A DNA stretch of 64,000 nt. It comes from Rhizophagus irregularis. Taxonomy: Eukaryota. The first letter of the stretch is position 1; the number at the start of each line of letters is the position of its first letter. This document shows positions 4,888-53,310 of the stretch, piece after piece. The translations under genes and the position numbers were made by a program. The notes beneath the pieces were generated by a model. It had not been told where the DNA came from and searched no databases. It saw only the letters and a list, made by a program, of their open reading frames with translations. Location: positions 5,332,001 to 5,396,000 of the forward strand of contig NC_089433.1 of the NCBI RefSeq assembly GCF_026210795.1. The letters run 5' to 3'.

Positions 4888-7653
4888 TTTATTTATTTTA
4901 TTTATTTTATTACTAAAAGAGTGGCAGAACCCAGGCTATTACAAATAGAAGGAGAAAGATTTCGAAAAACTTAAGACTAATATATGTGCATAGACCTTTG
5001 TTCGTCATCCCCTACGGGACCTCACTCTTCGATCTGTACTATTTGATAAAGTAGGACTACGCTAATAAATCAAATGTGAACCAATCAAAAAAAAACTAAA
5101 CTAAAAAAAAAGAGAAGTTAATTGATCCATATTTTTCTTTTGGCCGAGGCCACCACCTGTAAATACTGTCATAGGCGGAATGGTTAACACTATTCTTATT
5201 GTATATACTATCATACTAAATAAAAAAGAAACATAAGAAATAGACAACGTCTATACAAAAAATTGATTCCAAAATAATGAAAAAAAAAACTATATATAGA
5301 TAAAAAAAAGGAACATTAAAAGGATGATTTGGACGATCCCGCCTGCTCAGAATCAAGAGCTAGAGGAGAATCTAGACGGGAGCGTTTATATATATCATGA
5401 GATCTGTGAATATTACTAAAGGTATGATCAGCTCGTTTTAAAGGACGAGTTTCAATTTCCTTGGTGTCATCAGACGTGTACGGTTCACTATCAAACGTTT
5501 TATATGGGTATTCGAACGGAGAACGCGTGGTATTACGCTTTAAAGATAGAGGAGCGGATACACCTGGATAGTTGATCAAAAAAGAATCCATTTCCGATTG
5601 TAAAAGTTTCTTCTTTTGTTTACTTTTCTTTTTCTGGTATTTCGAAAGGGTAGGACGTTGAGGGTTCGACATATCATAATGAAAATCATTATTCCATTGA
5701 GTTAAATCCACCGCTTGACGTTGTCGATATAACACATGGTTAGAACTAGTGCCATGATATCGGGCCAAAGTTTGAATTCGAGCGGCTTCTTCTAATTGAA
5801 GCTTCTTGATATTAAGTGAACGTTCTTCTTGATGTTGTTGATAACGAAGTTTAGTAGCCTGATTTTCGGCATAGAGTTCATCCATTCTAGCGTTAAATTT
5901 AGTGGCCTCAGCTTTTTCAAGGCGTTCATCACGGGTATTTAAATCCAATTGATACATATAAGTAAACCATTCCCTAGAACCAGGGACAATAAAAGAACCA
6001 AAATTATCATAAATAGGATCAGGCGGTATGATATCCCGATATTTAATAGAAATAAACATATCCGGAGTAGGATTATAAGGAGCGACCGTATATAATAAAT
6101 CATCATTAGAAGCCGGAATTAGAGTCGACTCTGTGACATTAGAAGTATTCCTTGTAGTCCTTAATTCCTTGGACGTGTTCGTATTGGCGCTAAAATAATG
6201 CGGAATGGTGAAGTTATAATCCTTTTGTTTGGGGATATCAGCAGTTTTCTTATAATGTAAGTGTCTGAGAGGAGCCGTAAATTTTTGAGATGGTAAAAAA
6301 AGAAATCGTCCTTTTTTAGCTGCAGCCAGTTTCGTCGATGTACTGGAAACAGCACCTGGTTTAATAACTTCTTGTGATAAAATACGACGACAAGAGCGTT
6401 CGAATCTGACTTGTTGCTTTTTAGCTGTCCTCGAATTTGGACTTGGAGTTGAACGGAAGTTATTCATAAGTTTGTGGTAAATGTGAGTACGTCCAGGGTT
6501 GATTTTACGATTCGAATTACAAACAATATATCTAAAATTATAAGAAATCCCCGTTCTTGTAGAGAAAATAGATTTTGATTCTTTTTTTATCCATCGGTCA
6601 AATGTCAATTTAGCGTGAAGCTCTTTGTTCTGAGGGTGGATCTTAGGTGTGAAATCACCATTATCATTTCGTATAAAAGTTAACCCATCTGGATATTTCT
6701 TAAAAAAGTGTAAACCGCATCCGTATCTATTATTAGACATAACTATAGGAGAAGGAACCTCACAACATCGAGGTGGAAGAGATAAGCCTTTCGACTCAAT
6801 TCTGTGGTCGCAAGAAATAAAGATACCAAAATGAAATCTGTATCTTTTATACGAAAAATTGAAAAAAGTTTTCGTTATTGTATTCTTATTGTTGATTTTG
6901 TATTCACGTGATTTGATAAACGTGATTCTATCTAATAATTTTTGGCGTAGCATATTGAAATATTTATGTTGGATACGGCGTGGAATAACTCTTTGTGAAG
7001 AAAAAAAATGCTGAAGACCTTTGCTAATTTGATATTTGGCGTTCGGTAGTGCACTTGTGGAATGATACTCAATAGGGGTAGTTGACATGAGATAATCATT
7101 TGTGTGTATCTTTAAATGAAGCTGATTGGTGTCCAAATGGTGATCAACAATCTCAAAAAAGAAACTTTTTGAACGTCTAAATTCATAGATCTTGTTATAA
7201 CCGGATTTGTATATTCGGGTCACGTGAAATTTTTTGAAGGAAATGAGAAAAGAATTATTTTCACACGAAGGTGGTGAAAGACGTAAAGGAGTGTGGACTG
7301 GTATAGTCAAGAGTGAAGTATCCTGTAGTTGTATATTTGTGCCTAAAACATTATTTTCAGCAAGTCCATCTTCAGCAATATTACTTCTGATATTGGAAAT
7401 AGCGTCCAACTGGCTATAAGATTTCAGAGACTCATATGAAACCGAGGAAAAATCTATCTCGATAAAGTTTGAAGAAGTCATATCCCTAATATATGGGTAT
7501 TAATAAGAACAAAACCTCGTATTGTGACCGAGGCGCCCTACAGGGCCTCTTAACCCTTTGGGTGTTTCAAATAGAAACTAAAAAAAACCTTGCGTTAAAT
7601 TACTGCGGAAAACTAACAAAAATAAAAAAGGGGAAAGAGTTTTTTTTCAGTTC
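4888..7653 (-). mobile_element. Retroposed (TPRT-type) insertion with 16-bp TSD and (TAAA/TAAAA)n tail, carrying one long ORF
   Basis: CATAGATTAATGTGAA at 4872-4887 and 7654-7669. The minus-strand 3' end is an ATAAAATAAAT-type tail at ~4888-4911. The 3' UTR is colinear with that of the LINE fragment at 8360-8570. Confidence 0.85.
5316..7481 (-). CDS. 721-aa intronless protein of unknown function inside the retroposed element
   Basis: Long uninterrupted ORF, less AT-rich than flanks. Basic middle part, possible Cys/His cluster (CDH...CC...CGLH), coiled-coil-like C-terminal part. No RT (YxDD) or endonuclease motif seen. Confidence 0.8.
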   Translation of the reverse strand: MTSSNFIEIDFSSVSYESLKSYSQLDAISNIRSNIAEDGLAENNVLGTNIQLQDTSLLTIPVHTPLRLSPPSCENNSFLISFKKFHVTRIYKSGYNKIYEFRRSKSFFFEIVDHHLDTNQLHLKIHTNDYLMSTTPIEYHSTSALPNAKYQISKGLQHFFSSQRVIPRRIQHKYFNMLRQKLLDRITFIKSREYKINNKNTITKTFFNFSYKRYRFHFGIFISCDHRIESKGLSLPPRCCEVPSPIVMSNNRYGCGLHFFKKYPDGLTFIRNDNGDFTPKIHPQNKELHAKLTFDRWIKKESKSIFSTRTGISYNFRYIVCNSNRKINPGRTHIYHKLMNNFRSTPSPNSRTAKKQQVRFERSCRRILSQEVIKPGAVSSTSTKLAAAKKGRFLFLPSQKFTAPLRHLHYKKTADIPKQKDYNFTIPHYFSANTNTSKELRTTRNTSNVTESTLIPASNDDLLYTVAPYNPTPDMFISIKYRDIIPPDPIYDNFGSFIVPGSREWFTYMYQLDLNTRDERLEKAEATKFNARMDELYAENQATKLRYQQHQEERSLNIKKLQLEEAARIQTLARYHGTSSNHVLYRQRQAVDLTQWNNDFHYDMSNPQRPTLSKYQKKKSKQKKKLLQSEMDSFLINYPGVSAPLSLKRNTTRSPFEYPYKTFDSEPYTSDDTKEIETRPLKRADHTFSNIHRSHDIYKRSRLDSPLALDSEQAGSSKSSF

Positions 7654-7889
7654 CATAGATTAATGTGAAGCGAAGTTTAGCCTATATTTATTGATGCTCA
7701 TTTTCTCCACGTGACCTATACTTCTCAAAATTTTCTTCATCCAAGGAAAATCGTAAAATGCACCATCACGTGATCTTTCAGCATAACTAATTTCCGGCAA
7801 TTTCATTGTTTCCTGGACTCGAAAACCGATGTCAGAAATTTTATTAACAAACATTTATTAACATTTATAAAATTTTTTTGTTAATTTTT

Positions 7890-8570
7890 TTTACTCATTT
7901 ATATTCCTAATGAACTTTTGGCACCTTTTCAAGCGGCTATTAAATCAAAGAAGCGCATTAAACGTTTGTTATTATCATTCGTTCATTATTTACATGTTGA
8001 AATTTACAACATCATTTGGAAAACACGCAGCTCAAAATTCAAAGAATGGAAATCCTCCAACAATATATCTAAAAAGACCTTCCAAAACTACCAACGTAGG
8101 CAAACACATAATTCGCTACCCTTGAGGGATCATTCACGACGACAACTTACACAATCGTCTTGGCAGTATCGATGTCCGTATAGCGATGATAGACGCATCC
8201 TTGACATTACCGTCGTGTGGATTTATTTTACTTCTTCGAATTTCTTTCACAATTTACCGAGGTATCATTAGCTAGACTTTTCTGTTTTTATAGATATTTC
8301 TTCTTTAATTAATTCTTCTCGGTATGCTTTCCTCTATTTTTACTTTAGCTTCTAATTCCTTTGTTCGTTCACTGCTATGGCGACTATGTCTCCATTAGTC
8401 AGTTCGTTCTAACGAAGAGTGGGTCCGCCTGTTGGATTTTGTACGTCTAGTTTAGCTGTGTACTTATATTGTGTCTTGTAGTCATAACGAGTCTGTAACT
8501 AAACGATGTATTCACCTCTTATAAGTAAAAAATAAAAAATAAAAAATAAAAAATAAAAAATAAAAAAAAA
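7890..8570 (+). mobile_element. 5'-truncated LINE: ORF2 C-terminus, 3' UTR and (TAAAAAA)n tail
   Basis: IPNELLAPF...IYNIIWKTRSSKFKEWK resembles the IWxxR C-terminal region of non-LTR ORF2; stop at 8271; tail repeats 8526-8570. No TSD found. Confidence 0.7.
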
Positions 8571-9000: not shown

Positions 9001-9614
9001 GAAGAATACATTCAAAATTTTATTTATATTATATGGTTTGAAATTATTGAATAGTACGCAACACACAAAGATCAGCAATCATATGATAATACATTACCAA
9101 TCAAAATGTATAATTTATATATATATATATAAGAATCGAACACATTAAAAAGAATTTGAATAATTTATAAAATAATAAATAAAGTAAAAAAAGAATTAAT
9201 TGGTTACCCTTAACTTTATTTATGATTGTTTGTAAATAATATTTGCGAAAATATAAAATCTATATATAAAATGGATTTAATAATTTTTCGCATATGCTAT
9301 TCGTTCAAAAGATTTATTACCCGTAAATTTGTACAATGCAAATTTTTTTTTTTTTTTAGAAAGTTCTATTTTAAACTTTAATTATTTATAAAACTTCGTG
9401 TGTAATAATAAATAATATGCATGTTTAATTGCAACGTTATTTAATTTGTTGATTAACGTACACCCGAAAGATTCCGTAATCCGAAAAAAATTTTGTTACA
9501 CAATGCAACGTTATATAATTTGTTAATTAATGCACATCCAAAAAATTCCGTATACTTACTTTTTTGTCGTATTCTTTAGTATCTATTAATCTGAATTCAT
9601 TTGTAATTTAAAAA

Positions 9615-12600
9615 ATGAATTTTTTTATCAAGAAGTTATTTAAGTCATTACATATTAAGAAATGTAAAATATGTGAAATATGTGAATATGCATGTCATGC
9701 AATGTATTTTCAGCGAAATTTCAAAAATTGGACTAGTGGTAATAGTGATATTGATAAATTTATTCAAAATAATCAGCTATCAGTTCACAAAGATAATGAA
9801 ATATCACATGTGTTAGAATGGATATCTTATGATAGATTGTATAATATTAAATATATTGCAAAAGATGAATTTGGCGAAATATATCGAGCAAATTGGATTG
9901 ATGGAAATATAAAAAGTTATGTGAGTGTTACATATCAAAATTGTGTTACATATCAAAATTGGGAAAGACATAATAAACATATGGTTGTAGTTCTAAAAAG
10001 TTTAAATAATTTAAAAAATATTACAACTGAAATTGAAAATGAGGTATAATGAATTTATTAATAAAATTTTGAAGTTTTTAATTTTTACTAATATATTTAC
10101 ATTTGTAGATCTATAAACCTTATGGCATAACTCAGAATCCAGCAACAAAAAATTATATCATGGTTTTGAATTATAATAAATGTAAAAAGTGTGATACTAT
10201 ATGTAATGCAATACTCTTTAAACATAAATTCATAGATTGGACTAGTGGTAGTAATGATATTGATAAATTTATTCAAAATATCCAGCTATCAGTTCACAAT
10301 TATTATGAAATGTCACATGTATTAGAATGGATACCTTATGATAGATTGTATGATATTAAATATATTTCAAAAGATGAATTTGGCAAAATATATCAAGCAA
10401 ATTGGATTGATGGATATATAGTTATTAGGGATTATAAAACACAAAATTTGATAAGATATAATCGAAATATGTTTGTAGTTCTAAAAAGATTGAATAATTT
10501 AAAGAATATTACAACTGAAATTAAAAGTGAGGTATAATGAATTTATTAATAAAATTCTGAAGTTTTTAATTTTTACTAATATATTCATGTTTGTAGAATT
10601 ACTATAAACCTTATGGCATAACTCAGGATCCAGAAACAAAAAATTATATCATGGTTTTGAATAATATTAAATGTAAAAAGTGTAATAGAATATGTAATGC
10701 AATACACTTTCAACATAAATTCATAGATTGGACTAGTGGTAATAATGATATTGATAAATTTATTCAAGATACTCAGCTATCAGAACATACTTTTTATTGG
10801 GTAACAAATGCATTGGAATGGATACCTTATGATAAAATGTATAATATTAAATATATTTCAAAAGATGAATTTGGCGAAATATATAGAGCAAATTGGATTG
10901 ATGGATATATATACAATTGGAATAATACAAATAAAAATTGGATGAGAAAATATCAAAATATGTTTGTAGTTCTAAAAAGATTAAATAATTTAAAGAATAT
11001 TACAACTGAAATTGAAAATAAGGTATGATGAATTTATTAATAAAATTTAAAGTTTTTAATTTTTACTAATATATTTATGTTTATAATAGTATTACTGTAA
11101 ACCTTATGGCATAACTCAAGATCCAGAAACAAAAAATTATATCATAGTTTTGAAAAATATTAAATGTAAAAAGTGTAATGGTATATGTAAAGCAATACAC
11201 TTTCAACATAAATTCATAGATTGGACTAGTGGTAATAATGATATTGATAAATTTATTCAAGATACTCAGCTATCAGTTCATAATAATATAAATATTAAAG
11301 TATCACAAGCATTAGAATGGATACCTTATGATAGATTTTATGATATTAAATATATTTCAAAAGATAAATTTGGCGAAATATATAGAGCAAATTGGATTGA
11401 TGGAGAAATAGAGTATTGGGATAATGGAAATTGGAAAAGATATAATCAAAATATGTTTGTAGTTCTAAAAAGTTTAAATAATTTAAAGAATATTACAAAT
11501 GAAATTGAAAATGAGGTATAATGAATTTATTAATAAAATTTTGAAGTTTCTAATTTTTACTAATATATTTACATTTGTAGGTCTATAAACCTTATGGCAT
11601 ATCTCAGGATCCAAAAACAAAAAATTATATTTTGGTTTTGAATTATAAATGTAAAAAGTGTAATAGAATATGTAATGCAATACACTTTCAACATAAATTC
11701 ATAGATTGGACTAGTGGTAATAATGATATTGATAAATTTATTCAAGATACCCAGCTATCAGAACATACTGATTTGGTAAACAATGCATTAGAATGGATAC
11801 CTTATGATAGATTGATTTATATTACAAAAGATGAATTTGGCAAAATATATCAAGCAAATTGGATTGATGGAGAAATAGAGTATTGGGATAATGGAAATTG
11901 GAAAAGAAATAATCTAAATATTTTTGTAGTTTTAAGAAGTTTAAATAATTTAAAGAATATTACAACTGAAATTGAAAATGAGGTATGATGAATTTATTTA
12001 ATAAAATTTGAAGTTTTTAATTTTTACTAATATATTGTACATTTGTAGGTCTATAAACCTTGTGGCATAACTCAAGATCCAGAAACAAAAAATTATATCA
12101 TGGTTTTGAATTATGAATGTAACGAATGTGATGATATATGTAATGCAATACACTTTCAACATAAATTCATAGATTGGACTAGTGGTAATAATGATATTGA
12201 TAAATTTATTCAAGATACCCAGCTATCAGAACATACTGATTTGGTAAACAATGCATTAGAATGGATACCTTATGATAGATTGTATAATATTGTAAAAGAT
12301 GAATTTGGCAAAATATATCAAGCAAATTGGATTGATGGAGAAATAGAGTATTGGGATAATGGAAATTGGAAAAGATATAATCTAAATATTTTTGTAGGTT
12401 TAAGAAGTTTAAATAATTTAAAGAATATTACAATTGAAATTGAAAATGAGGTATGATGAATTTATTTAATAAAATTTGAAGTTTTTAATTTTCACAAATA
12501 TATTTACATTTGTAGGTCAATAAACCTTGTGGCATAACTCAAGATCCAGAAACAAAAAATTATATCATGGTTTTGAATTACTATAAATGTAAAAAATGTA

Positions 12601-14690
12601 ATGGTATATGTAATGCAATACACTTTCAACATAAATTCATAGATTGGACTAGTGGTAATAATGATATTGATAAATTTATTCAAGATACCCAGCTATCAGT
12701 TCACAAAGATATTGAAATATCACATGCATTGGAATGGATACCTTATGATAGATTGTATAATATTGTAAAAGATGAATTTGGCAAAATATATCAAGCAAAT
12801 TGGATTGATGGAGAAATAGAGTATTGGGATAATGGAAATTGGAAAAGATATAATCAACATATGTTTGTAGTTCTAGGAAGTTTAAATAACTTAAAGAATA
12901 TTACAACTGAAATTGAAAATGGGGTATAATAAATTTATTAATAAAATTTTGAAGTTTTTAATTTTACTAATATATTTATATTTGTAGGTCTATAAACCTT
13001 GTGGCATAACTCAGGATCCAGAAACGAAAAATTATATCATGGTTTTTAATAATAATAAATGCAAAAAGTGTAATAGAATATGTATTGCAATACACTTTCA
13101 ACATAAATTCATAGATTGGACTAGTGATAATAATAATATTGATAAATTTATTCAAGATACCCAACTATCAGTTCATAATAAAATTGAAATATCACAAGCA
13201 TTAGAATGGGTACCTCATGATAGATTTTATAATATTAATTATATTGCAAAAGGCGGATTTGGCAAAGTGTATAGAGCAAATTGGATTGATGGAAATCTAA
13301 TTAATTGGGATAATGAAAATCAAAATTGGATGAGATATAATCAAAATATGTTTGTAGCTCTAAAAAGTTTGAATAATTCAAAAAATGTTCCATTAGAATT
13401 TATGAATGAGGTATAATATGATTAATTATTTACTATTATTATACCTAAATTATTAATTTTACTATATTTTTTCTTTTGTATAGATTATATTGCATAATAA
13501 AGGAGGCATAGATAATGATTTTATTGTTAGATTTTATGGAATAACTCAAGATCCAGAGACAAAAAATTATATGATGGTTTTAGATTATGCAGAAGGTGGG
13601 AGTTTACGAAATTATTTAGATAAAGAATATAATAAGCATAATTGGGATAAAAAGATTGTTTATTTACGATATATTATAGATGGACTTAAATGTATTCATG
13701 AAAAGGAATTAGTTCACCGAGATTTGCATATTGGAAATATATTAAAGTTTAAAAATAAAACTGCTATAACTGATATGGGATTATGTAAACCTGCAAATTA
13801 TAATGCATTAGAAAATACAAATAATAATATATATGGTGTTTTGCCTTATATTGCTCCTGAGATTTTAAGAGGACAAAATTATTCTAAAGCTGCTGATATT
13901 TATAGTTATGGTATAATTATGTATGAAGTAATTTCCGGATTACCTCCATATTATCATTTAAGCCATGATAATAATTTAGCAATCAAAATTTGTCAAGGTC
14001 TTAGACCAAGGTTTAGCATTGAAGTACCACAATTAATTGTGCAATTAATTAAAAGATGCTTAGATGCCAATCCATTAAATCGACCAATAGCAAAAGAAAT
14101 TAATAGTATTTTATACATATGGAAATATATTTCAACTAATGAACAAAGCAAAATATTACAAGCACAAATTAATAAAATAAACAAATATTCATTAGATAGC
14201 TGCATAACTCCAATTAACTTAGGAATATCAAATAATACACATTCAGGAGCTATTTATACAAGTAGGTTACTTGATTTTAATAGTCTTCCTGAACCAAAAA
14301 ATTCAGACGATTATTATGAGCAATATGATAATATTATAAGCAAGGAATTTTCAGGTATTATTAATTGTTTTATTATCTTAAATATAAATCAGGTTTAAAT
14401 ATACTAATAAACTTTTATTAAATAGATTCTTTACAAATCGATATATCTCAATTAAATAATACACATTCAGGAGCTATTTATACAAGTAGGTTACTTGATT
14501 TTAATAGTCTTCCTGAACCAAAAAATTCAGACGATTATTATGAGCAATATGATAATATTATAAGCAAGGAATTTTCAGGTATTATTAATTGTTTTATTAT
14601 CTTAAATATAAATCAGGTTTAAATATACTAATAAACTTTTATTAAATAGATTCTTTACAAATCGATATATCTCAATTAAATATTAATTAA
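9615..14690 (+). CDS. TKL protein kinase with 8 tandem N-lobe modules (gene A)
   Basis: Exons 9615-10043, 10109-10531, 10597-11022, 11090-11515, 11581-11982, 12049-12450, 12516-12923, 12988-13410, 13484-14354, 14426-14578, 14650-14690; all GT-AG and frame-compatible. Final module has KGGFGKV and VALK; C-lobe has HRDLHIGN, DMG, APE. Confidence 0.9.
14230..14682 (+). repeat. 224-bp tandem duplication of exon end + intron + next exon start
   Basis: TCAGGTATT at 14351 and 14575; copies identical by eye; absent from paralog gene B. Confidence 0.9.
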
Positions 14691-24811: not shown

Positions 24812-27800
24812 TATTCGTTCAAAAGATTTGTTACCCAAAAATTCGTACAATGCAAATTTTTTTTTTAGAAGTTCTATTTTAAACTTTAATTATTTATAAT
24901 ACTTCGTGTGTAATAATAAATAATATGCATGTTCAATTGCAATGTTACATAATTTGTTGATTAGCGTACGCCCGAAAGATTCCGTAATCCGAAAAAAATT
25001 TTGTTACACAATGCAACGTTACATAATTTGTTTACCCAAAAAATTCCGTATACTTACTTTTTTGTCGTATTCTTTAGTATCTATTAATCTGAATTCATTT
25101 GTAATTTTAAAAAAAAAGTCAATGGATTTTTTTATCAAGAAGCTATTTAAGTCATCACATATTAAGAAATGTAAAAAATGTAAATATGCATGTCATGCAA
25201 TGTATTTTCAGCGAAATTTCAAAAATTGGACTAGTGGTAATAATATTATTGATAAATTTATTCAAAATACTCAGCTATCAGAACATACTTATTGGGTAGA
25301 AAATGCATTAGAATGGATACCTTATGATAGATTGTATGATATTAGATATACTGCAAAAGATGAATTTGGAAAAGTGAATAGAGCAAATTGGATTGATGGA
25401 TATCTAACTAATTGGGATAATGAAAATCAAAATTGGACGAGAGTAAACCAAAATATGTTTGTGGTTCTAAAAAGTTTAAATAATTTAAAGAATATTACAA
25501 CTGAAATTGAAAATGAGGTATAATGAATTTATTAATAAAATTTTGAAGTTTTTAATTTTTACTAATATATTTATATTTGTAGGTCTATAATAAACCTTGT
25601 GGTATAACTCAAGATCCAGAAACAAAAAATTATATCATGGTTTTGAATTATAATAAATGTAAAAAGTGTAATAGTATATGTAATGCAATACACTTTCAAC
25701 ATAAATTCATAGATTGGACTAGTGGTAATAATGATATTGATAAATTTATTCAAGATACCCAGCTATCAGAACATACTGATTATATTGTAAAAAATGCATT
25801 AGAATGGATACCTTATGATAGATTGTATGATATTAAATATATTTCAAAAGATGAATTTGGCAAAATATATCAAGCAAATTGGATTGATGGAGAAATAAAG
25901 TATTGGTATAATGGAAATTGGGAAAGATATAATCAAAATATGTTTGTAGTTCTAAAAAGTTTAAATAATTTAAAAAATATTACAATTGAAATTGAAAATG
26001 AGGTATAATAAATTTATTAATAATTTTTGAAGTTTTTAATTTTTTATTAATATATTCATGTTTGTAGAATTACTCTAAACCTTATGGCATAACTCAGGAT
26101 CCAGAAACGAAAAATTATATCATGGTTTTGAATAATATTAAATGTAAAAAGTGTAATAGTATATGTAATGCAATACACTTTCAACATAAATTCATAGATT
26201 GGACTAGTGGTAATAATGATATTGATAAATTTATTCAAGATACTCAGCTATCAGTTCATAATAATATAAATATTATAGTATCACAAGCATTAGAATGGAT
26301 ACCTTATGATAGATTTTATGATATTAAATATATTTCAAAAGATAAATTTGGCGAAATATATAGAGCAAATTGGATTGATGGAGAAATAGAGTATTGGGAT
26401 AATGGAAATTGGAAAAGATATAATCAAAATATGTTTGTAGTTCTAAAAAGTTTAAATAATTTAAAGAATATTACAACTGAAATTGAAAATGAGGTATAAT
26501 GAATTTATTAATAAAATTTTGAAGTTTTTAATTTTTACTAATATATTTATATTTGTAGGTCTATAATAAACCTTGTGGTATAACTCAGGATCCAGAAACA
26601 AAAAATTATATCATGGTTTTGAATTATAATAAATGTAAAAAGTGTAATAGTATATGTGATGCAATACACTTTCAACATAAATTCATAGATTGGACTAGTG
26701 GTAATAATGATATTGATAAATTTATTCAAGATACCCAGTTATCAGAACATACTGATTATACTGATTATAGGATAAAAAAGATAAAAAATGCAATAGAATG
26801 GATACCTTATGATAGATTGTATATTGCAAAAGATGAATTTGGCAAAATATATCAAGCAAATTGGATTGATGGAGAAATAGAGTATTGGGATAATGGAAAT
26901 TGGAAAAGATACAATCAAAATATATTTGTAGTTCTAAAAAGTTTAAATAATTTAAAGAATATTACAACTGAAATTGAAAATGAGGTATAATGAATTTATT
27001 AATAAAATTTTGAAGTTTTTAATTTTTACTAATATATTCATGTTTGTAGGTCTATAAACCTTATGGCATAACTCAGGATCCAGAAACAAAAAATTATATC
27101 ATAGTTTTGAATAATTATAAATGTAAAAAGTGTAATAGTATATGTAATGCAATACACTTTCAACACAAATTCATAGATTGGACTAGTGGTAATAATGATA
27201 TTGATAAATTTATTCAAGATACCCAGTTATCAGAACATACTGATTATACTGATTATAGGATAAAAAAGATAAAAAATGCAATAGAATGGATACCTTATGA
27301 TAGATTGTATATTGCAAAAGATGAATTTTGCAAAATATATCAAGCAAATTGGATTGATGGAGAAATAGAGTATTGGGATAATGGAAATTGGAAAAGATAT
27401 AATCAAAATATATTTGTAGTTCTAAAAAGTTTAAATAATTTAAAGAATATTACAACTGAAATTGAAAATGAGGTATAATGAATTTATTAATAAAATTTTG
27501 AAGTTTTTAATTTTTACTAATATATTTATATTTGTAGGTTTATAAACCTTATGGCATAACTCAGGATCCAGAAACAAAAAATTATATCATGGTTTTGAAT
27601 AATAATAAATGTAAAAAGTGTAATAGAATATGTAATTTAATACACTTTCAACACAAATTCATAGATTGGACTAGTGGTAATAATGATATTGATAAATTTA
27701 TTCAAGATAGCCAGCTATCAGTTCATAATAATATTGAAGTATCACATGCATTAGAATGGATACCTTATGATAGATTGTATGATATTAAATATATTGCAAA

Positions 27801-29970
27801 AGGCGGGTTTGGCAAAGTGTATAGAGCAAATTGGATTGATGGAAATCTAATTAATTGGGATAATGAAAATCAAAATTGGATAAGATATAATCGAAATATG
27901 TTTGTAGCTCTTAAAAGTTTGGATAATTCAAAAAATGTTCCATTGGAATTTATGAATGAGGTATAATTTGATTAATTTAATCTATTGTTTATTATTATAA
28001 TACTTAAATTGTTAATTTTACTAGTATATTCTGTATTTTTTTTTTTATATAGATTATGTCGCATAATAAAGGAGGAATAGATAATAATTTTATTGTTAGA
28101 TTTTATGGAATAACTCAAGATCCAGAGACAAAAAATTATATGATGGTTTTAAATTATGCAGAAGATGGAAGTTTACGAAATTATTTAGATAAAGAATATA
28201 ATAAGCTTAATTGGGATAAAAAGATTGTTCATTTACGATATATTATAGATGGACTTAAATGTATTCATGAAAAGGAATTAGTTCACCGAGATTTGCATAT
28301 TGGAAATATATTAAAGTTTAAACATAAAATTGCTATAACTGATATGGGATTATGTAAACCTGCAAATTATAAAACATTAGAAAATACAAATAATAATATA
28401 TATGGTGTTTTGCCTTATGTAGCTCCTGAAATTTTAAGAGGACAAGGTTATACCAAAGCTGCTGATATTTATAGTTATGGTATAATTATGTATGAAGTAA
28501 TTTCCGGATTACCTCCATATTGTGATTTAAACCATGATAATAATTTAGCGATCAAAATTTGTCAAGGTCTTAGACCAAGGTTTAGCATTAAAGTACCACA
28601 ATTAATTGTGCAATTAATTAAAAGATGCTTAGATGCCAATCCATTAAATCGACCAATAGCAAAAGAAATTAATAGTACTTTATACATATGGAAAAATATT
28701 TCAAGTAATGAACAAAGCAAAGAATTACAAGTACAAATTGAGGAAGCGGGTGAAATAAACGAATATTCATTAGATAGCTGCATAACTTCAATTAACTTAG
28801 GAATATCATATAACACACATTCAGAAGCTATTTATACAAGTAGGTTACTCGATTTTAATAATCTTCCTGAACCAAAAAATTCAGACGATTATTATGAGCA
28901 AAATGATAATATTATAAGCAAGGAATTTTCAGGTATTATTAATAATTTTGTTATTTTAAAATATAAATCAGTTTTAAATATACTAATAACTTTTTATTAA
29001 ATAGAATCTTTACAAATCGATATATCTCAATTAAATATTAATTAAGATGTAAGATTTTAATTTAGTTATTTGTATTCAATATATTATATTATTTTTTTTT
29101 TAGGTGCAAAAAACGAATATAACATTATTATATACTGATATTACTATTTTTTCTTTCGAGAACATGCAAATCATTACAATTTAAAATTCTGTTTAACATA
29201 GATTTTCTTAACATTGACGTTAAAATAGTACAGTATTTTGAAATTAGAATTAGTGAGAATTGCGCTAAATAAGATTTAAATTTTAATGACCATTTTTTTT
29301 AAATTATATATTTACTTATTTTATATTTGTTAGTTAAATAAAATTTTCAAATTTGAGCAATTATAAGATGTTTGGCCTGTCATATTCCAAGTTCAATTTA
29401 CAATTGTAATAATATACAAAGAGAAAGAAATTTTTTTTGATTCTGTCCTGGTAAACTGGCGAATATCCATCACTCTCTGAAATCGATTTAATTATATAGT
29501 GAGCGATTTCAACTTCATAATTGTACAAGATCAGCCCCAAAGAAACTGCAGACATAGCCACCTGGTCGCATGTTAATATTCAAAATTAAATAAATAAGAT
29601 CAGAACGAAACTAAAGATAAAATATACAAGGCTAGAACAAATAACCGAATGAAAGATGAAAGAAAAAAACAACTGGTTAGTTGCTATAAAGTGTAAAGAA
29701 AATAGATTCTGAAATTCTAAAAAACCTAAAATTTACCATTTACTGGGGTACCAAAGTTGAAACCCTATAAAAAAGAAAATGGTTGTAAGGAACTGTAGCA
29801 AATAAAAAAAGAAAACGAATATATTAAAAAAAGCTTACTTCTAGGAATATAAAAAGAAGAATAGGAAAGGCTCATAAAAAATTATCCATATTTGATGAAC
29901 AATCAGGTAGTATCGCCAGAGTCGGTTAAAACTAGATATATTCAAAATTAGTAAGATACTGTTGGAATTA
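24812..29970 (+). repeat. Segmental duplicate of ~9297-15600 (upstream region, repeat kinase and ~0.9 kb downstream)
   Basis: CTATTCGTTCAAAAGATTT at ~9297 and ~24811; downstream 14690-15600 matches 29045-29970. Confidence 0.88.
25122..29045 (+). CDS. TKL protein kinase with 6 tandem N-lobe modules (gene B, paralog of gene A)
   Basis: Exons 25122-25517, 25583-26002, 26068-26493, 26559-26984, 27050-27472, 27538-27960, 28053-28932, 29005-29045; frame-compatible; catalytic motifs intact. Confidence 0.9.
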
Positions 29971-39582: not shown

Positions 39583-41539
39583 ATAATTTTTCATTCTAAA
39601 GAATCACGTGATACCGGATAAATATTTTCCTGTAGCAATATGTTTTAATCATTCTTAAAAAATCATCAAAACTTTTAATTAATTTATTTCATATAATTGG
39701 ATTCATTAATAAATGAATTAGCTAAATTAGTAAGTAACATTGGTCGAATAAAATATTTTTTTTTTTGTTCTTCAAAATCATTAATTTCAGCATTATGACA
39801 AAATGATAAATAAATTTTGTATATCACTTTTAGTTTGATATTTTAATAATCGTAATTTTCTTTTACTTGATTTTTAAATTAAGAAAGATATCTAATGCCT
39901 AAATAGCCTAATGTATTAATTTGAAGAATATCATTTTAAAGAAAATAATATATTTGAATTTTATCCATTTATTTGGATGAATATTTCAATTGTATTTTGG
40001 AAGTTTCATTTTTTTCTTTAAACAAAACAAAAAAGAGTCAAGTGAAACAAGTTAATCTTTGGGTATCACGTGAGGTAAAAATTAACATGAAATAAAACAT
40101 GGGCGTATTAGAAATGATCTGTAGGTGTACATTTTTGACACAAAATCTTTCAACATTTTATTTGATTACGTGTTCGTATAATTAATGAATGGAATTTAAT
40201 AGGATATAAAATTAACTAATTGCTCATATTGTTTTTATGCTAAAATGATACATTTTCAAAATTCAAGAACGAGGGTGACCGAGTCACTCCAGACTCCCCT
40301 TCCTAGGCTTTTTTTTTTATTTTTCACTTATTTTTCACTTATTTTTCACTTATTTTATTTTTTTTTCATTTTTACTTTATTTCCTTTTGTTTTTTCTGAT
40401 TCCTTAAACATGGATAACAAATAATAATAACGTGTTAGATTATAACTAAATAATCAATATTACCGATAAAAAAAAATTGATATGATTACTAATTGATCTT
40501 TATTCTAGCAAAACAAAGTTAAATAATTGATGGTGTCATTATTATATTTATAATATTTGGAACTGATGGTTTTTATAAACTGAATTGATTTTTACGTCTG
40601 CCTAAAGGTATTTTATAGGTAGCTTTATTTTGGCCTTTTACTTGATAAATTAAATTCTACTAATTAAAATTTATCATATCGGCTGATTGGAAAAATCAAG
40701 CCAATTAATATTTAAGCTCAGTTGATGGGTTCATTATATAACTGATTGGTTACTTATCGTCATTAGCATATAAAATTATGGGGGGCTTTTCTGATCAGCC
40801 GATATGTTAAATAAAATTTAAAATTATTATGAGTTTTGGCTTATAAATCACTTAACTAAAATTTAAATTCTACTTATTAAAATTTATTAAATAAAATTAA
40901 AATTATTACTTAACTAAAATTTATAATATTTAAAAAAGAATAAATTACAGCCACCTAACCGCAAGAAGAAAGCATCAACTATATACAGTACATGTGGCTG
41001 CAATTTAATCCAAAATCCGAAGTGAAACTCTGGTTGAAACTTAAGAACATGGCCAAAATTATTTAGTAATTCTGGTCATATTTGTAGTCCGTCCAGAATT
41101 ATAAATCACGTTCCTGTGATAGAATTTTGTGATACACGAATGTTACACAAAATTCATAATGCGGAATGTATAGTGCTGGCCAGACAATTTCGGCCTGAAT
41201 TTCAACTTTTGGCGGGTTCCAGTTTCGGGAATGACTGGCCAAACCCAATTATGCTGAAATTAATGAGTATTAGTCACATGTATAAACAACTAGGTAGCTT
41301 CAAAGCTGAAAAAATATAAATTTCAGTAAAGTATTATTTTTATTTATTCAGTTTATTATGTGGTTTTGCTGCGCAACAATGAGACGGATGTGCAAATTTG
41401 TTTGTTATACAGTACATGTAATGATGCAATGCTACTTGTGATCCACATAATGCATTTTGCATTACCATACTAATAAAAGTGTTTTAATATTAATTAAAAT
41501 AAAAGATATTTATCTTTTTCAGTTAGGAAAAACATATTA

Positions 41540-42755
41540 ATGGCTTACAGTGATGATAAAGGTAAATCAAATATAGCAAGAACACTTAATACAATTAGAA
41601 TTCACAAAATTTTTTAACCAATTTGCAATATAATAAAACCAGTTTCCAGTAGTATTGAAGAATTTGAAGAAAGTGGCACTGAAAAATTTGTAGGAAGTAG
41701 TATTGAGAAATTAGAAGGAAGTAGTACCAAAGAATCTAAAGGTATATCAAACAAGCTGAAATATTAAATTTTATTTGTAAATAATTCAACTTATGTAATA
41801 TACATATATAATTTAAACTAACTATATTAATTTAAACTAACTATATTATATAAAATTATATAAAATAATTGTTTCATTTAATGATTAATAATAATACTAT
41901 AGTTAGTAAGTTATCAGTTAATTAAATTTTAGTTTTTTACTTTACTTATTTACGTAATATAGCTAAATTTTTTGTTTAAATAACTATTTAATAATTGACT
42001 GTATTACAGATGGTAAATTACAATATGCATTATATATATCATATCTGTTTAATATTCTATATAACTCAACTAATTATATTTTTAATATAAATAACTAGAT
42101 TGTAAGTGATGCATTTAATTTACAGTAAATACTTTGTATTATGTTTATATTTAACTAATTAATTAATAATATTACAGGGTGTAAGTTATATTTATATTTC
42201 TACTATTATTTATTATATAATTTAAACTGACTAAATTCTTTATTTAAAAAATTATTTTGTAATTTCTTTTAGTTGTTAAGTTATAAGTTATTTATTTAAT
42301 TTTATTATTACTTATTGTTATAATATTTACATATCATTTAAATTATCTAATTTCTTTATTTAAAAAATTATTAAATAATGTAGAGAGTAAGTTATTTATT
42401 TAATTCTATTATTACTTATTGTTATAATATCTAATTACTTTATTTAATAGATGGTAAGTTATTTATTTAATTCTATTATTACGCATTTATATAATACTAT
42501 AATTTGAACCAACTAAATTCTTTATTTAAAAAATTATTTAATAATATAGAGTGTAAGTTATTTATTTAATTCTATTATTAATTGTCATTATAATATTTAA
42601 ATTCTTTATTTATAAAATTATTTATAGGGGGTAAGTTATTTATTTATTTAATTCTATTATTACTTATTTAGTATATATATAATGTTTACATATATTTAAA
42701 CTGACTAAATTCTTTATTTAAAAAATTATTTTGTAATTTATTTTAGATGGTAAGT
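41540..42755 (+). pseudogene. Probable gene 5' part with an array of 3-nt microexons, truncated downstream
   Basis: Exons 41540-41561 and 41643-41741 (MAYSDDKVSSSIEEFEESG...), then about ten AG|NNN|GTAA sites between 41903 and 42749. Confidence 0.6.
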
Positions 42756-42810
42756 CATAAACCAGTTATTTATTAATTCTATTATTACTTATTTATATAA
42801 TATTTACATA

Positions 42811-43070
42811 TACAGTAGGCGATCGCTTTGAAATCCTGTTTCTTGTTCGGTTGGGGATAAGTAGGTGAAAATATAAGTAGGATGAAAAATATGTAGATGA
42901 AATAGATGATGTAAGGAAATAAGTAGGTGAAATAGGTGGTATAAGTAGGTAAAAATGGTGATATAAGTAGGTAAAAATATAAATAGGTGATTTAGATTAT
43001 GAAATAAGTAGGATATAAGTAGGTAAAAATATAAATAGGTGATTTAGATTATGAGATAAGTAGGTGAGCC
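42811..43070. repeat. TE-end-like sequence with ATAAGTAGG(T) subterminal repeats
   Basis: Starts TA|CAGTAGG; repeated ATAAGTAGG/AAATAGGTG motif with a short tandem duplication. Confidence 0.55.
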
Positions 43071-44123
43071 AGAACTGGCATTTTCATACTACTATACTGC
43101 AACGTCATTCTGATCTAGATTCAAGTCTAAATAAAAAATTAATATATTATAAAATTTGAAAAAAATTAGTTTATAAAAAAAAAACTATATTAGTAAAAAA
43201 AAATGGTGAAAAAAAAAATCAGTTTTAAGTGAATTTAAAAATTAAAACTATTCTCATATAAATTTATTTTTAAATAAAGATGGTGTTTTTATTCTTTTAA
43301 TGATTATTTGTTTGAACCATAAAAAAATTTTTTTTATAATGAGATGTTATTTCTGACCAAAAATTCTATTTTTGTATTACATAACCATCCGGTTTAGTGA
43401 AAAAAAATATACCTGAATTATTAATTTACAATTTACATAATTTTCATAATAAATTGAATTTTTTCTTTTCTAACGAATTTTTCTGACAATCTCTCATTAT
43501 ATTATTTCATCATTAATATTTTAAATTACGAAAAATTTTAACAATTAAAATAGTCATATCATAAACTATTCAATTTATTTTTGAACTTTTGATGGCATCG
43601 TACATCTATTAATATTAAAAAGCCTATCAATCATAAAATTTTAAGATATGATTAAAATGATGCTCTCACGGAATTAATTATCAATTTTTAAATTAGACGA
43701 AGGTTTCGAACTATAAAATTTAGCCAATTATGATCCGCTTATATAATCCAATTTTCAAATTTTTTGCAGATTATGGCGTAAATAGAAGTAGTATTTCATG
43801 TATTCCATTTAGCCATTTTTGTAAAAAATCAACATTATTAATAAATACGGTAACAAGTTTTTTCACTCTTTCACAAATTTACTAAGTTATAAAATATAAA
43901 CATAACAGATAAATGAAAAAAAAAATGAATTTTGGTTACAGTTTTATGTTTAAAATCTTTATTTATATAGAATATTCTTAAATATAAAATCTGTTAAATC
44001 TATATGTACTATATATTATAAAAATTTATAAAGTATAAATGAAAAAAAATAGGAGTAAACTAACTTCAATACACGAATTAATATTTAAACTATTTAACTT
44101 TAACTTTCACATAAAAAGAAACT

Positions 44124-46011
44124 TCATTCAATATTATCTTCACCATCTTGACAAATTTCATTTAGCTCTATAAAAAAAACAATAAATTAGATATAGAATA
44201 TCAATAAAATTACAAATAATAATAACTTACCTAATTCACTTAATTGAACATCTAAGCATTCTGAAACTGTATATTATGAATTTATAGTATTTAAATGTTA
44301 GTAAATTTAAATAAAATAATTATAATAATAAAGGGAATACTTACTTGGATTTGCTGATGTTGATTGAGCAGTATAACTAGTATCTATTAAATCATAAAAT
44401 AACATTAATAATGTAAAATGGATTATTTGATAAAACAAAATAAAATTTAATTACCTGAACTGAATTGAAAAGATGATAAACCTGAAGAATTTACTGGTTT
44501 TGGAAGATTTTTGAAATTTAAAAGTCTACTAGTATAAACTGCTTGTGGATGCGTTTTGAAGCTTTTGGATTTATCTTCATTTGACCTGTTTTTGAATTTT
44601 TCCTTTCTAATTTTATCACATTCTTTGATTTGAAAATAAATTTCACCATTTTGACCTTTGGCACCATTATACCATCCATTTAGTGTTTGATACAACTCTT
44701 TAGTGGTTGGTCTATTTTTTATTTCAGCATCCCAACATTTTACCATCAAATCTGCAAGTAACTTTGGTATGTCTTTAGAAATTGTTGGTCTAAGTCCTTT
44801 ACATATTTTAATAGCTAAAAATTCATTGTGAGGAATATCATTAAAAGGAATTTCTTCAGAAAGAAATTCGTTCATTATTATCCCAAATGAGTAAATATCT
44901 GCTGCTTTTGTATATTGTTGTCCACGTAAAACTTCTGGTGCCATATATGGTAATACTCCATAAATTCCTTCTTCTTTAACTGTTTGCTTTATATTTGCTG
45001 GTTGACACATTCCTAAATCACTTATATATGAAGAACTATAAGCTATTAATATATTGCCTGAATGAAAATCTTTGTGAACTTTTTCAGCATTATGAATATC
45101 TAAAAGTCCTCTTGCAATTTGTTGTAATTTATAAATTTTTGAATTATAATTTATATAATTTTCAGATTTATTTAAATAATTTCTCAAATTTCCATCTTCA
45201 CAATATTCTATAACCATCATATAATCTTTATTATTTGGATCTTGAGTAATTCCAAAACATTGAATAATATCTACAAGATGAATCTGAAGATGAGATTTAA
45301 TCTAATTATCATAAAAAAGGAAAAATTTTATTAATAACTGAAATAAATGCAAATAACAAACTTTATATACAAGAAAAAGTAAGTTTAAATTACCTCATTT
45401 AAAAAATCTGAACATATATCAGAAGAATTATTCAAACTTTTTAATGCATATTTATTATTCTTGAATCTAGACCATTTTTGATTTTCAATATCCCAAGTAC
45501 AAATATATCCTTCAGGCCATTCAGCTGAATAAATCTTACCAAAACCACCTTCCGCAATATAAGTGATATTTTGAAATTTTTCAAAAGGTATCCATTCAAG
45601 ATATTTTTTATGATATACAGCATTAAGTTGTGATTGCTGTATAAATTCATCAATATCTTTATTTCCACTAGTCCAATTTTTAAAGTTATCTTTAAATCTT
45701 TTAGCATTACACGATTGACACCAATCTTCTCCAGTGCCAGGTTCTTTACATTCTCCACATATTCCATATGCTTGTTTTCTTTTTTCTAAATCTCCTATAT
45801 AAACTACTCTTTCATCTACATTTTCTGATTCAATAGTTGAATCAATAGTAGGAATTGTAACATGGCGCTTTTAATAGACAATAAATTATTAATATTTTTA
45901 ACTACAAAAATTCAATAAAATAATTTATAATTATTAAAAATATTAAATTGCTATTACCAGATATTTATTATAATCAGTACTCACCCATAAATTTTTTGGG
46001 GTTTCATCCAT
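44124..46011 (-). CDS. TKL protein kinase, single N-lobe (gene D)
   Basis: ATG 46011; exon ~45867-45394 (CGEC..WCQSC, WTSGN, EGGFGKI, YALK); exon 45301-44455 (HKDFHSGN, DLG, APE); three short 3' exons; TGA 44124-44126. First donor ambiguous. Confidence 0.88.
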
Positions 46012-49429: not shown

Positions 49430-50850
49430 TACTAAATAAAAATATATATTTATCCTAACTAAAAAGTCATGCAAAACATGTTTTTTCAAATAAAAAAAAT
49501 CATTTATTTGATTATATTACTTGAAAGAACAAAAAAAATTTTAGCAAAAAAATACGATAATTAGGAAAATAATTATTATTAAAAATAAGAATCAGAAAAA
49601 AAGGCGCTAACCATAACGGCGTAATGCCATAGTGTTAATCTGATCACTGACCTAGATTCAAGTCTAAAAACTAAATAAACAATAATATACTTATATAACA
49701 ATAATTTTAAAAAAATATATGGAAAAATTATATAAAAAGAATATAGTATAGATTATAAAGGAAATTAAAAATATTTGAAAAATAATTTTGGTTTTAGAAA
49801 AAACAACCCCAAAAAGGAAAGGGTGAGCCAGAAAACCTGAAAAATTTTGTTTTTTAAAAGAAAAAATTAAAAAATTAAAAAAAAAATCAGTTTAAAAAAA
49901 AACTGAAAAAAAATATCAAAAAAGAAATTGGTTAAAAAAACAAATAAAAAAAATGGATTGAAATAATTAGTAATTACAAGTTTCAAATTAGCTAAATCTT
50001 ATTTAATGTAGGCTTCAATATAAATTTAATAGAAAATAGATACTTTGTTATATATATATATGGTGAATACGGGTTTAATTACAATGTAATTGGTACAGAC
50101 GTACAGTACTAATAAAGTCTGTGTTAAAAAAAAAAAAATATTAAGGGTAAAAAGTATTAGTAAGAAAAAAATCCTAAATTTACAATAAGAAAAAAAGAAA
50201 CAAAAAAAAGGTGCTTACCGTTGCCTGCAGCACCGATCTGATCACCCGATCCAAACCTAATGGTGAAAAATTTGGTTTGAAAAAAAAAGCCAACCCGAAA
50301 AAAGAAAAGGTGAAAAAATTTTTTCAGATTGGAAAAAAGCCAAAGCCAACCTGAAAAAAGAAAAAGGTTTAAAGAATTCGAAAAAAACTGAAAAAAAAAT
50401 TTACGAGAAGGGACAAAAGAAAAATAGGGAACCGAAAAGGAAAAGGAAAGAAAAAATAAAAAAAAACTTGAAAAGAAAAAGAAAAAAAAATTGGGGGAAA
50501 AATAAAGAAAGAAATCGGTCTAAAAAAAAAATCAAAAAAATAATATAAGTTATTTAATAAAAAAAAAATAATAATAATAATTTTTCGGTTTTGGAATCTA
50601 AATGGAGAAAAAATGAAAAAAAAAACAAAAAAAAAGAAAGAGGAAAAAAAATGAAAAATTTTTAAAAAAAGAAAAAAAAAGGAAAAGAAAAAGGTGTTTC
50701 GAAAGAGAAATGACAAAATTTGAAAAAAAGAAAAAACCAAAGAAATTGAAAAAAAAAATAAATATTTGAAAAAAAAAAATTCCGATTAATTAGATGTACA
50801 ACATGACTTGCCAATCAATCGGGTCTTAACTATAAAAATACGAATCAGCC
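49430..50850 (-). mobile_element. Degraded relative of the Helitron at 17586-21620
   Basis: 50165-50500 closely matches 20775-21130 (GGTGCTTACCGTTGCCTGCAG...GATCACCCGATCCAAACCTAA); 49440-49670 resembles 17655-18085. Ends not resolved. Confidence 0.7.
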
Positions 50851-51102: not shown

Positions 51103-53310
51103 TTTTTTTTTTTTTTTTTTAAGGTTCAACTCATATATTTATTAATTTTAGAATAAAGATACAAAACGCGAGTTACAAAAATAAAGCTCTAGCTAACTAG
51201 TTACTAAATAGTTGTGGGGGGATAAGAATTAATTGCTCTACGAGACGATCTAAATCCCACTGCCGACCCATAAACAACTTTCACCCATCTACCTGATGGA
51301 CTACTGGAAGACGTATCAACCTTAATAGCGTTTATAAACTACACTAACACCTACTGCACCTTTAATTAACTACACTACTACTAATAAATTAAAAATTCTA
51401 TAAACATAATAACAAAGAGCTACGCTATTATAGTACACAACAATTATAGTAATCAATTATTTTTCCTCCATATCTAATGTAATTAACTAATCCTTCTGTA
51501 TCATTATATTTTTTATCTGTAGGAGGTTTTTTTGTTGTTATACATTTTTCTTTACCATATTGTTCTTTTAAAACATTTTTTGTAAGTCCTAATGCGATAT
51601 TAATTTCATGATAGACAGAACATCGTTCATTCCAAAAATCTCTAATTAAATCGAAAGAAATTTTCCGGAAATTATATAAAATTTCCTTTGTTTTTTTATA
51701 ATTTTTTAATTTTCCATTAATAAATTTACATAAACTTAAAGGAATTATTCCTTTTATTATATCAATACTTGTAAAAAAATCTTCTCTAATTGAATTATCC
51801 CAAATAAAAGGTAAATCTGGCAAATCAATATCTTCTACATATAATGCTTGATTTTCTATTTGATCATTAATACTATCAATTAAAATTTGTTTTATCTGTT
51901 GAATTAATATAAAATTGTCTTCTGATCTTTGGTTACATGTCCAAACATGATTAAATTCTTCTTTTCTATATTACATATTGGACAAAAACGATCTTTAAAA
52001 ATTGAAAAACATGATTTTTTAATATGTTCTATTGTAGGTATTTCTTCAATAAGAAATTGAATCTTTTTTCGCTTTAACTTAGATTCATAAAAATCTGTAT
52101 GCATAGTACCTTGATCTCCTTGTAGCAGATAAAATGTAATTTCCCAATCTACTTGTAGTTTTCGATATTTATAATTTCGATTAAGATTTAAAAATTGTTC
52201 CAGATTAAAAATATTTGTATATATTTTTAAAAATTTTCTTAAACTTAATTCTATTGGTACACCATTCCAATTAGGAAAAAATTTAATTAATGATAGTGAC
52301 GTTGTTTTAATATTGATTCCTAAATGTTGTATGTAATTATATTTATCTTTCAAATGTTGATTAAATATCGAAAAATTAAGATCATTTTCCTGAACAAGTA
52401 AGATATTAACATCTAATGATAATGTTTTAACAATTTCAAAAATTATAATCCACATATAATTATGGTGTTTTAATTTAAAAATTTGTCGACTTGTTAATGA
52501 AAAAAAATTATTAATTCTATAATTATTATATGTTTCTATTAACGATTTATCTTTTGTAAGAATAGTTATTCTACTATTATCTGGTAATATAATTATAGAA
52601 CATAATAGTGCTAAAATTGATCTAATATAAATGTCGAATTCAAATCAAATGTACTAAAACCAAAAATTGATTCAGCTTTATCTGTGCCTATGTTTTTTGC
52701 TGATCCATCTATATAAGTTAAAAATTGTTTAACGATAGTATTAATCTTTGAGAATATAATAAATCTGATTTATTTAAAGATAGATCTATATATTTATCAA
52801 TTATATTAACATTTTGATTCTGAAAATTCATTATAAACCTTGAGTCCATAACTTTGATAATATTGTGGATTTAAATTTAATTGTTGATTTATTTCCATTA
52901 TCTGAAAAATATCTACGTATTGAGTTTTTGGTAGAACTAATGTTTTATTTTTTTCAAATTTATCTGTAAAATTTTTTGTTTTTTCTCCTACTAAAAACAT
53001 ATTAGATGTTTTAAGCTTTAATAACCATTTTTTTGATTCACGAGTATCATTTGCAAAATTACAACCAGAACAAGTTTGAACTTCCATATAAATACTTTGT
53101 TTATCACTTGTAACAATATAATGTCTAATAATATATTCTTCTCCCTTTTTTTCTTCATCAAAAATTCTTCCTATTTGTAATCCATTATTCCAAAACATTA
53201 TAAATTGTTTTTTCTTAGATTCATTTGGCGAAATTAATTCGTAACCTTTTAAATTATTAATTATATTACTTTACCGATAACGTGGTTTCAATAAATTCGT
53301 ATATTTATCT
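51103..53310 (-). mobile_element. 5'-truncated, frameshifted LINE (RNase H-like and Cys-rich C-terminal ORF2 remnants) with poly(A) tail and TSD
   Basis: T-run 51102-51120; 20-bp TSD with one mismatch AAAAACGTTA(G/A)TTTCGCTAT at 51083-51102 and 53311-53330; YIDGS near 52710, CPIC, FWNER. Confidence 0.88.

Follow-up and report, generated by a model that had tools for sequence, protein, structure and literature searches.

An array of three-nucleotide exons in the window

We asked whether a run of ten triplets, each set between intron-like sequences, in a 64,000-nucleotide stretch of Rhizophagus irregularis DNA (the window) is a genuine array of microexons and, if so, what kind of gene it belongs to. 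The window is AT-rich (GC content 0.19–0.34) and holds several kinase genes with introns and repeated N-terminal units. The kinase gene at 9612–14398 has about seven tandem exon-intron units and that at 24924–29000 about six (period 468–491 nt); each unit encodes a CxxC and kinase-N-lobe-like repeat, and a full kinase domain follows. Two minus-strand regions, a 727-amino-acid open frame at 5316–7499 and several frames at 51428–53270, have the look of retroelement remnants.

The array-bearing copy lies on the plus strand. Exon 1 (41540–41561) has an ATG start and ends in phase 1, and it is homologous to the first exon of a related metagenomic locus (L026) and of gene models. Exon 2 (41643–41741) is open in a single frame and in phase 1 at both ends; it encodes an acidic 24-nt repeat, and Rhizophagus kinase models have a homologous N-terminus. 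Both phase-1 exons that the original prediction placed before the array are therefore present. They are followed by a 161-nt intron (41742–41902), which lacks a CTC triplet unit that L026 and paralog RNA have at this point.

All ten predicted triplets were found exactly where they had been placed. Microexon 1 (TTA, 41903–41905) is supported by the motif scan and by paralog RNA; microexons 2 (ATG, 42010–42012), 3 (ATT, 42099–42101) and 4 (GGT, 42178–42180) are supported by both and by alignment with L026. Microexon 5 (TTG, 42273–42275) has a TT donor in the window copy and a GT donor in most paralog reads. Microexon 6 (AGA, 42384–42386) was again recovered by the motif scan and in paralog RNA, and microexons 7 (ATG, 42451–42453), 8 (AGT, 42550–42552), 9 (GGG, 42628–42630) and 10 (ATG, 42747–42749) by the motif scan. 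The nine introns between them measure 104, 86, 76, 92, 108, 64, 96, 75 and 116 nt, in agreement with the claimed units of 64–116 bp separated by 3 nt. The fifth donor indeed reads TTAAGT, while the other nine of the ten units follow the pattern YAG-NNN-GTAAG/GTAAA. The CTAA/CTGAC branch-like motif, claimed for every unit, was present in seven of the nine introns by regular expression and absent from 42553–42627; in the first intron between microexons, GCTAAA was seen by eye.

Could such an array arise by chance? The YAG-NNN-GTAA(G/A) motif occurs nine times in the window copy, whereas first-order Markov simulations of 41741–42810 (5000 runs) never contained it more than twice (no motif in 4744 runs, one in 247 and two in 9). 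The microexon array is thus not a product of chance and is real. Searches of 41500–42800 for YAG-donor spacings of 1, 2, 4, 5, 6 or 7 nt gave zero matches. Among donor-like sites preceded by a YAG at up to 12 nt, the gap was 3 nt in 9/9 cases in the window, 7/7 in L026, 29/30 in L029 and 4/4 in L008 (the last two being further homologous loci), and in all four arrays this spacing holds while the intron lengths vary. We found no second cluster in the window, where the motif otherwise occurs in isolation (five times on the plus and four on the minus strand), and no Rfam match at the gathering score in 40500–44500.

Because both leading exons finish in phase 1, each triplet completes one codon with its first two bases and opens another with its third. 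When all exons are joined, the frame predicted to run without a stop and to end in VNDWFENEWD was reproduced, as was the TAG created by skipping the fifth exon. By itself the open frame is weak evidence, because 54% of random orders of the window's ten triplets are also free of stops. Since the triplets straddle two codons, a skip usually writes a new residue: single skips gave a residue or stop absent from those lost in six of eight internal cases in the window, which bears out the claim that skipping rewrites neighbouring codons, and in 13 of 27 in L029. The idea of a peptide built one codon per exon survives in part; the microexons are in frame, but they straddle codons, and the front of a kinase is a more likely product than a stand-alone peptide.

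Triplets in paralog RNA and in homologous arrays

We then asked whether the triplets are retained in spliced RNA. The region 41200–43000 was compared with about a quarter of each of two polyA runs (X22 and X23), chosen by species label, and with two contig sets (X7 and X10) whose status as RNA is a guess. From X22 and X23, 348 and 445 reads matched, mostly 85–95% alike to the window. Only 9 of the 348 and 2 of the 445 were at least 99% alike to the window locus, so the reads come from paralogs, for which the RNA depth over exon 2 was about 24–44 per direction. Among the 24 rows of loose read ends listed (of 160), at least three run onward from the end of exon 2 without an intron. One read group carries four other triplets and then window triplets 2–6 in order (18 reads with an agreement of 0.95 in X22, 21 reads with 0.96 in X23). 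Another (X22, 17 reads, agreement 0.81) reads CTC, window triplets 1–5 in order and then different triplets. The occurrence of triplet strings directly after exon 2 in polyA reads indicates that the 3-nt exons of this family are spliced, and the prediction of in-frame microexons is thereby borne out in paralog RNA, with strings that differ between copies. The base at 42276, the first of the defective fifth donor, was mostly G in the reads (10/12 and 6/9 in X23, 2/2 and 2/2 in X22). In the same RNA the acidic exon 41643–41741 is itself tandemly repeated, with a joint from 41741 to 41653 in 13 reads per run.

Partly spliced molecules were seen as well. An X10 contig has an exon-1-like start and five triplets, including window triplets 3–5, and then continues into array intron from 42277; mixed strings from X22 and X23 (agreement 0.5–0.58) likewise stop at an array-type donor. 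Such partly spliced paralog molecules argue against an intronless source. Another view would make the locus a non-coding AT-rich minisatellite, or a set of nested, stwintron-like introns removed whole. Tandem Repeats Finder does report a 166-nt period at 42284–42612, and the spliced reads derive from paralogs rather than from the window locus. Nevertheless, paralog mRNA keeps the triplets in genomic order, which contradicts this view for the family, and the 3-nt spacing is constant despite varying intron lengths; we regard it as extremely improbable.

A more serious question is whether triplet skipping yields many isoforms per gene, each skip writing a new residue. Symmetric 3-nt exons would preserve the frame (784 of the 1024 subsets of the window triplets are stop-free and encode 683 peptides), the skips described above often alter residues, some loose ends are mixed (agreement 0.5–0.81), and alternative splicing has been reported for Tuber nank genes in two reviews (PMC4986451, PMC10197012). 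However, the mixed groups may be mixed paralogs; agreement ranged from 0.5 to 0.96 overall, and the paralogs are inseparable in these reads. Moreover, one read group agrees at 0.95–0.96 over 30 letters, or about nine triplets, which speaks against frequent skipping in the paralog concerned. In L029, stops are avoided between neighbouring triplets (0/28, with 2.4 expected) and not clearly between the pairs brought together by skips (1/27, 4/26 and 2/25, near expectation). Splice-level generation of diversity is therefore rather unlikely in our judgement. Instead, the short introns would probably be recognised by intron definition, with a main mRNA carrying the triplets in order and skips as minor products.

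How are such arrays conserved? A metagenome scan for two adjacent intron-triplet units, with a pattern that fixed the ATT and GGT triplets and their splice sites, returned 40 loci: three AT-rich homologous arrays (L008, L026 and L029, with up to 29 triplets), ten unrelated arrays, two short-period repeats (L010 and L033), one irregular locus (L038), seven with three motif matches only and 17 with none. The conservation of ATT and GGT in the three homologous loci follows from the pattern by construction. In L026, exon 1 is followed by an additional 27-nt exon, then by the acidic exon and, up to the end of the contig, by seven triplets; the locus is 76% alike to the window over 876 columns and has the same layout, with 5′ introns that pair one to one with those of the window and with the CTC unit in place. 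Between the window and L026, 23 of 24 donor, 12 of 12 acceptor and 269 of 313 intron-body columns agree; against the more distant L008 the figures are 17 of 18, 8 of 9 and 152 of 217. The splice signals are thus better conserved than the rest of the repeat in both comparisons, although two of the triplets, together with their splice sites, had been set by the search pattern. In L029 there are 29 triplets, and one unit has lost its acceptor. In an assumed phase 1, all 28 of its junctions are stop-free, which 3.4% of shuffles match (P = 0.034). No relative was found in the viral contigs searched, and the genome contigs searched returned 13 bacterial kinases at 21–27% identity.

The triplets themselves differ between copies. 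The most similar intron pairs are 0.86–0.91 alike, while their flanking triplets are 0.22–0.59 alike (gap-free identity, which is inflated in AT-rich DNA); introns with a mean similarity of 0.91 have flanking triplets that are 0.30 and 0.59 alike. This supports the predicted contrast of similar intron bodies and different triplets, and the likeness of the intron bodies makes the unit look duplicated, as had been proposed. The pattern fits duplication of an intron-plus-triplet unit in which the triplet changes faster, as judged from sequence comparison. The start of the string, D-W-F/W, recurs in three RNA strings that were chosen independently of the search pattern; past this shared start the window peptide is acidic, whereas that of L029 is basic and aromatic. 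Units would very probably be gained and lost by tandem duplication and unequal exchange, leaving an older 5′ part (D-W-F/W) and a fast-changing 3′ part.

One may ask whether the encoded segment matters at all, or whether an intron-plus-3-base unit expands selfishly within a functionally neutral linker, with selection for an open frame only. The strings are very different between paralogs, the window copy has decayed (see below), and the near-background divergence of the triplets could reflect mutational saturation or loose constraint. Yet neutrality does not predict triplets that are more divergent than their flanking introns, and both the recurrent D-W-F/W start and the recurrence of unrelated arrays beside kinase, HET and GTPase-like genes speak against a neutral linker, which we consider unlikely.

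A putative kinase host gene and the state of the window copy

To which gene does the array belong? In our reading, to which we give a probability of about two in three, the window carries a gene that is likely broken, from a family that likely belongs to Rhizophagus. The family's run of 3-nt exons, which is spliced in related copies, would code for a variable segment placed after an acidic N-terminus and ahead of a tyrosine-kinase-like domain. Relatives of exon 2 bear the species names Rhizophagus irregularis or R. diaphanus. Searches with exon 2 led to gene models P0001 and P0002, which contain intron read-through; three of the four matches of one search were set aside as unrelated repeats. 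The acidic exon of L026 matched 12 Rhizophagus proteins, three with a kinase family; none of the other nine has an assigned family, and most of them run out into intron sequence. A search with residues 1–100 of P0008 gave seven matches, six of them kinases. Exon 2 is 61–65% identical to P0007, P0008 and P0016, the first 57 residues of P0007 correspond to the three exons of L026, and the acidic start is present in four of seven aligned kinase models.

The kinase-joined models are predictions. Pfam confirmed PF07714 in related models, and relatives carry PF07714/PF00069 or no family. The G-loop, Lys, HxD, DLG and APE elements are intact in six of eight models, the HxD segment being missing from P0018 and P0024. 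By sequence, the solved kinases closest to P0008 are an EGFR-labelled chain, CTR1, ZAK/MLT and TAK1; its AlphaFold model is unusable (pLDDT 37). None of the kinase models read has the triplet-coded D-W-F/W segment, and no contig or read among the DNA and RNA examined carries both array and kinase. The models POG74106.1, CAB4433711.1, PKY28853.1 and RGB27391.1 lack the D-W-F/W segment, and the window copy lacks a kinase exon. On the simplest reading, gene predictors jumped over the array; the link between array and kinase is an inferred one. The idea that the read-through before the kinase in the models derives from an array-type intron found no support, its motif having 0 matches on the plus strand in the window introns. 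Residues 1–38 of the partial kinase model P0019 look like array triplets in another frame and are left out of the evidence here.

Could the genes instead encode short, kinase-free proteins with an acidic head and a tail that varies and is either Trp/Arg-rich or acidic, the models' joins to a kinase being prediction errors? The nine of 12 acidic-exon matches without a kinase family would agree with this, as would the region 3′ of the L029 array, where a short sequence closed by stops in each of the three frames (by eye) stands in place of a kinase, and the lack of a plus-strand kinase after the window array. Against it, P0007, P0008, P0013 and P0016, under two species names, all place the acidic segment in front of kinases of one subfamily, and P0017, P0018 and P0019 have unrecognisable sequence directly before the kinase of the same subfamily, as expected if an array hides the N-terminus. 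Kinase-free proteins are therefore improbable, and in intact paralogs of the proposed kinase family we would expect, with good confidence, the array to lead into the kinase exon.

The window copy itself appears to be damaged. Its last intron (42750–42812) is truncated and ends abruptly at TA|CAGT, where paralog reads go on with intron sequence (joint 42812 to 42694). Unrelated, repeat-rich sequence interrupts the gene from 42813 to 43180, by insertion or rearrangement. The original prediction placed TE-like sequence at 42811: the intron does break at 42812, and 43110–43179 is the one part of the sequence after the break that recurs (at 49647–49715, 76%), but no inverted partner exists in the window, and the TE is putative. 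There is no plus-strand kinase in the 21 kb after 42812. We rejected a kinase at 44447–45870 as the 3′ part of the gene, because it is on the minus strand and about 41–43% identical to P0007/P0008. The TT donor would force skipping of the fifth exon and hence a stop. With this donor, the break and no kinase behind it, the copy looks decayed, as had been suspected; it is probably a pseudogene, with an assembly error at 42276 possible, and we hold it to be most probably non-functional.

According to PMC6123716 and PMC8647823, the chief family to have expanded in R. irregularis is that of the PF07714 kinases, which lies close to TEs. The window copy resembles them in that its exon 2 matches their acidic N-terminus, and its setting fits the high-copy, TE-adjacent and strain-variable context of these families. 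If the link is true, an unannotated variable segment is present in part of the kinase expansion of arbuscular mycorrhizal fungi, and the N-termini in databases are wrong because gene models skip the array. By analogy with the microexons of Tuber nank NLRs, the variable segment may set the partner or ligand specificity of the kinase. A bolder version, in which the kinases of this subfamily carry a hidden combinatorial recognition module of 10–30 codon-straddling exons, skips write residues that no contiguous codon in the gene encodes, and a largely clonal symbiont thereby makes kinase specificities by splicing for self/non-self or partner sensing, is quite unlikely.

Comparison with known systems

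Finally, we asked how this array relates to known systems of very small exons. Schistosoma micro-exon genes (MEGs) contain runs of symmetric microexons of 6–36 nt, and skipping can vary their products, which are secreted proteins with a signal peptide. The Rhizophagus array differs in its 3-nt exons, in an acidic start that by inspection has no hydrophobic leader, and in a host that is likely an intracellular kinase.

The ten unrelated arrays from the metagenome scan have a GC content of 0.38–0.48, are likely fungal and comprise 7–40 triplets, with L003 and L016 being one and the same. L004, L016, L021 and L009 resemble the window in having tandem, near-identical introns, 3-nt spacing, variable triplets and adjoining signalling or cell-death domains, and differ in intron sequence and GC content. 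At L004:7381–10587 and L016:47–1252, runs of 40 and 16 exons join a Ser/Thr kinase exon in phase 0 (PF00069 in L004), so that here the exons are whole codons; the L004 string is open in the phase-0 frame only and largely hydrophobic. L009 has about 25 three-base exons (854–2609, minus strand) downstream of a GTPase-like gene that is apparently present twice in the locus. In L021, five 3-nt units lie directly before a HET-domain gene (948–1787, minus strand), with arrays near 1850–2110 and 6870–8205, the second, longer one about 5 kb upstream of the HET gene. Further 3-nt arrays of 7–34 units occur in L006, L012, L023, L024 and L032. The Rhizophagus array brings Glomeromycota into a pattern of 3-nt exon arrays otherwise seen in ascomycete NLR and HET genes, and suggests that fungi have repeatedly diversified signalling proteins in this manner. 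It also offers a natural test bed for how the spliceosome handles 10–30 consecutive 3-nt exons. The phase-1 register is unusual because skipping can create new residues.

Stwintrons (PMC8469720) resemble the array in being closely abutting U2 introns in fungi. In a stwintron an internal intron splits a splice element and every intervening base is lost, while the bases between the array introns stay in paralog mRNA. The closest parallel is provided by Tuber melanosporum: the reviews PMC4986451 and PMC10197012, citing Iotti et al. 2012, attribute the diversification of its nank NLRs to alternative splicing of microexons of one codon (3 bp). No report of such arrays in Glomeromycota appeared among the titles and abstract openings searched; subscription journals and the text and supplements of Iotti 2012 may bear on novelty. 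So far as these searches reach, the novelty lies in a kinase host, in exons that straddle codons and in the lineage, while codon-sized arrays themselves are already published for Tuber nank. On the evidence of those reviews, the two systems share consecutive 3-nt exons, an expanded fungal family of signalling type (NACHT-ankyrin genes in Tuber), a proposed role in protein diversification and triplets kept in spliced mRNA, as seen here in paralog reads. They differ in the host, a putative PF07714 kinase of Glomeromycota rather than an ascomycete NLR, and probably in the phase-1, codon-straddling register; alternative splicing, reported for Tuber, is putative here. The Rhizophagus array thus works like the nank arrays described in these sources, and its host is not a nank gene.
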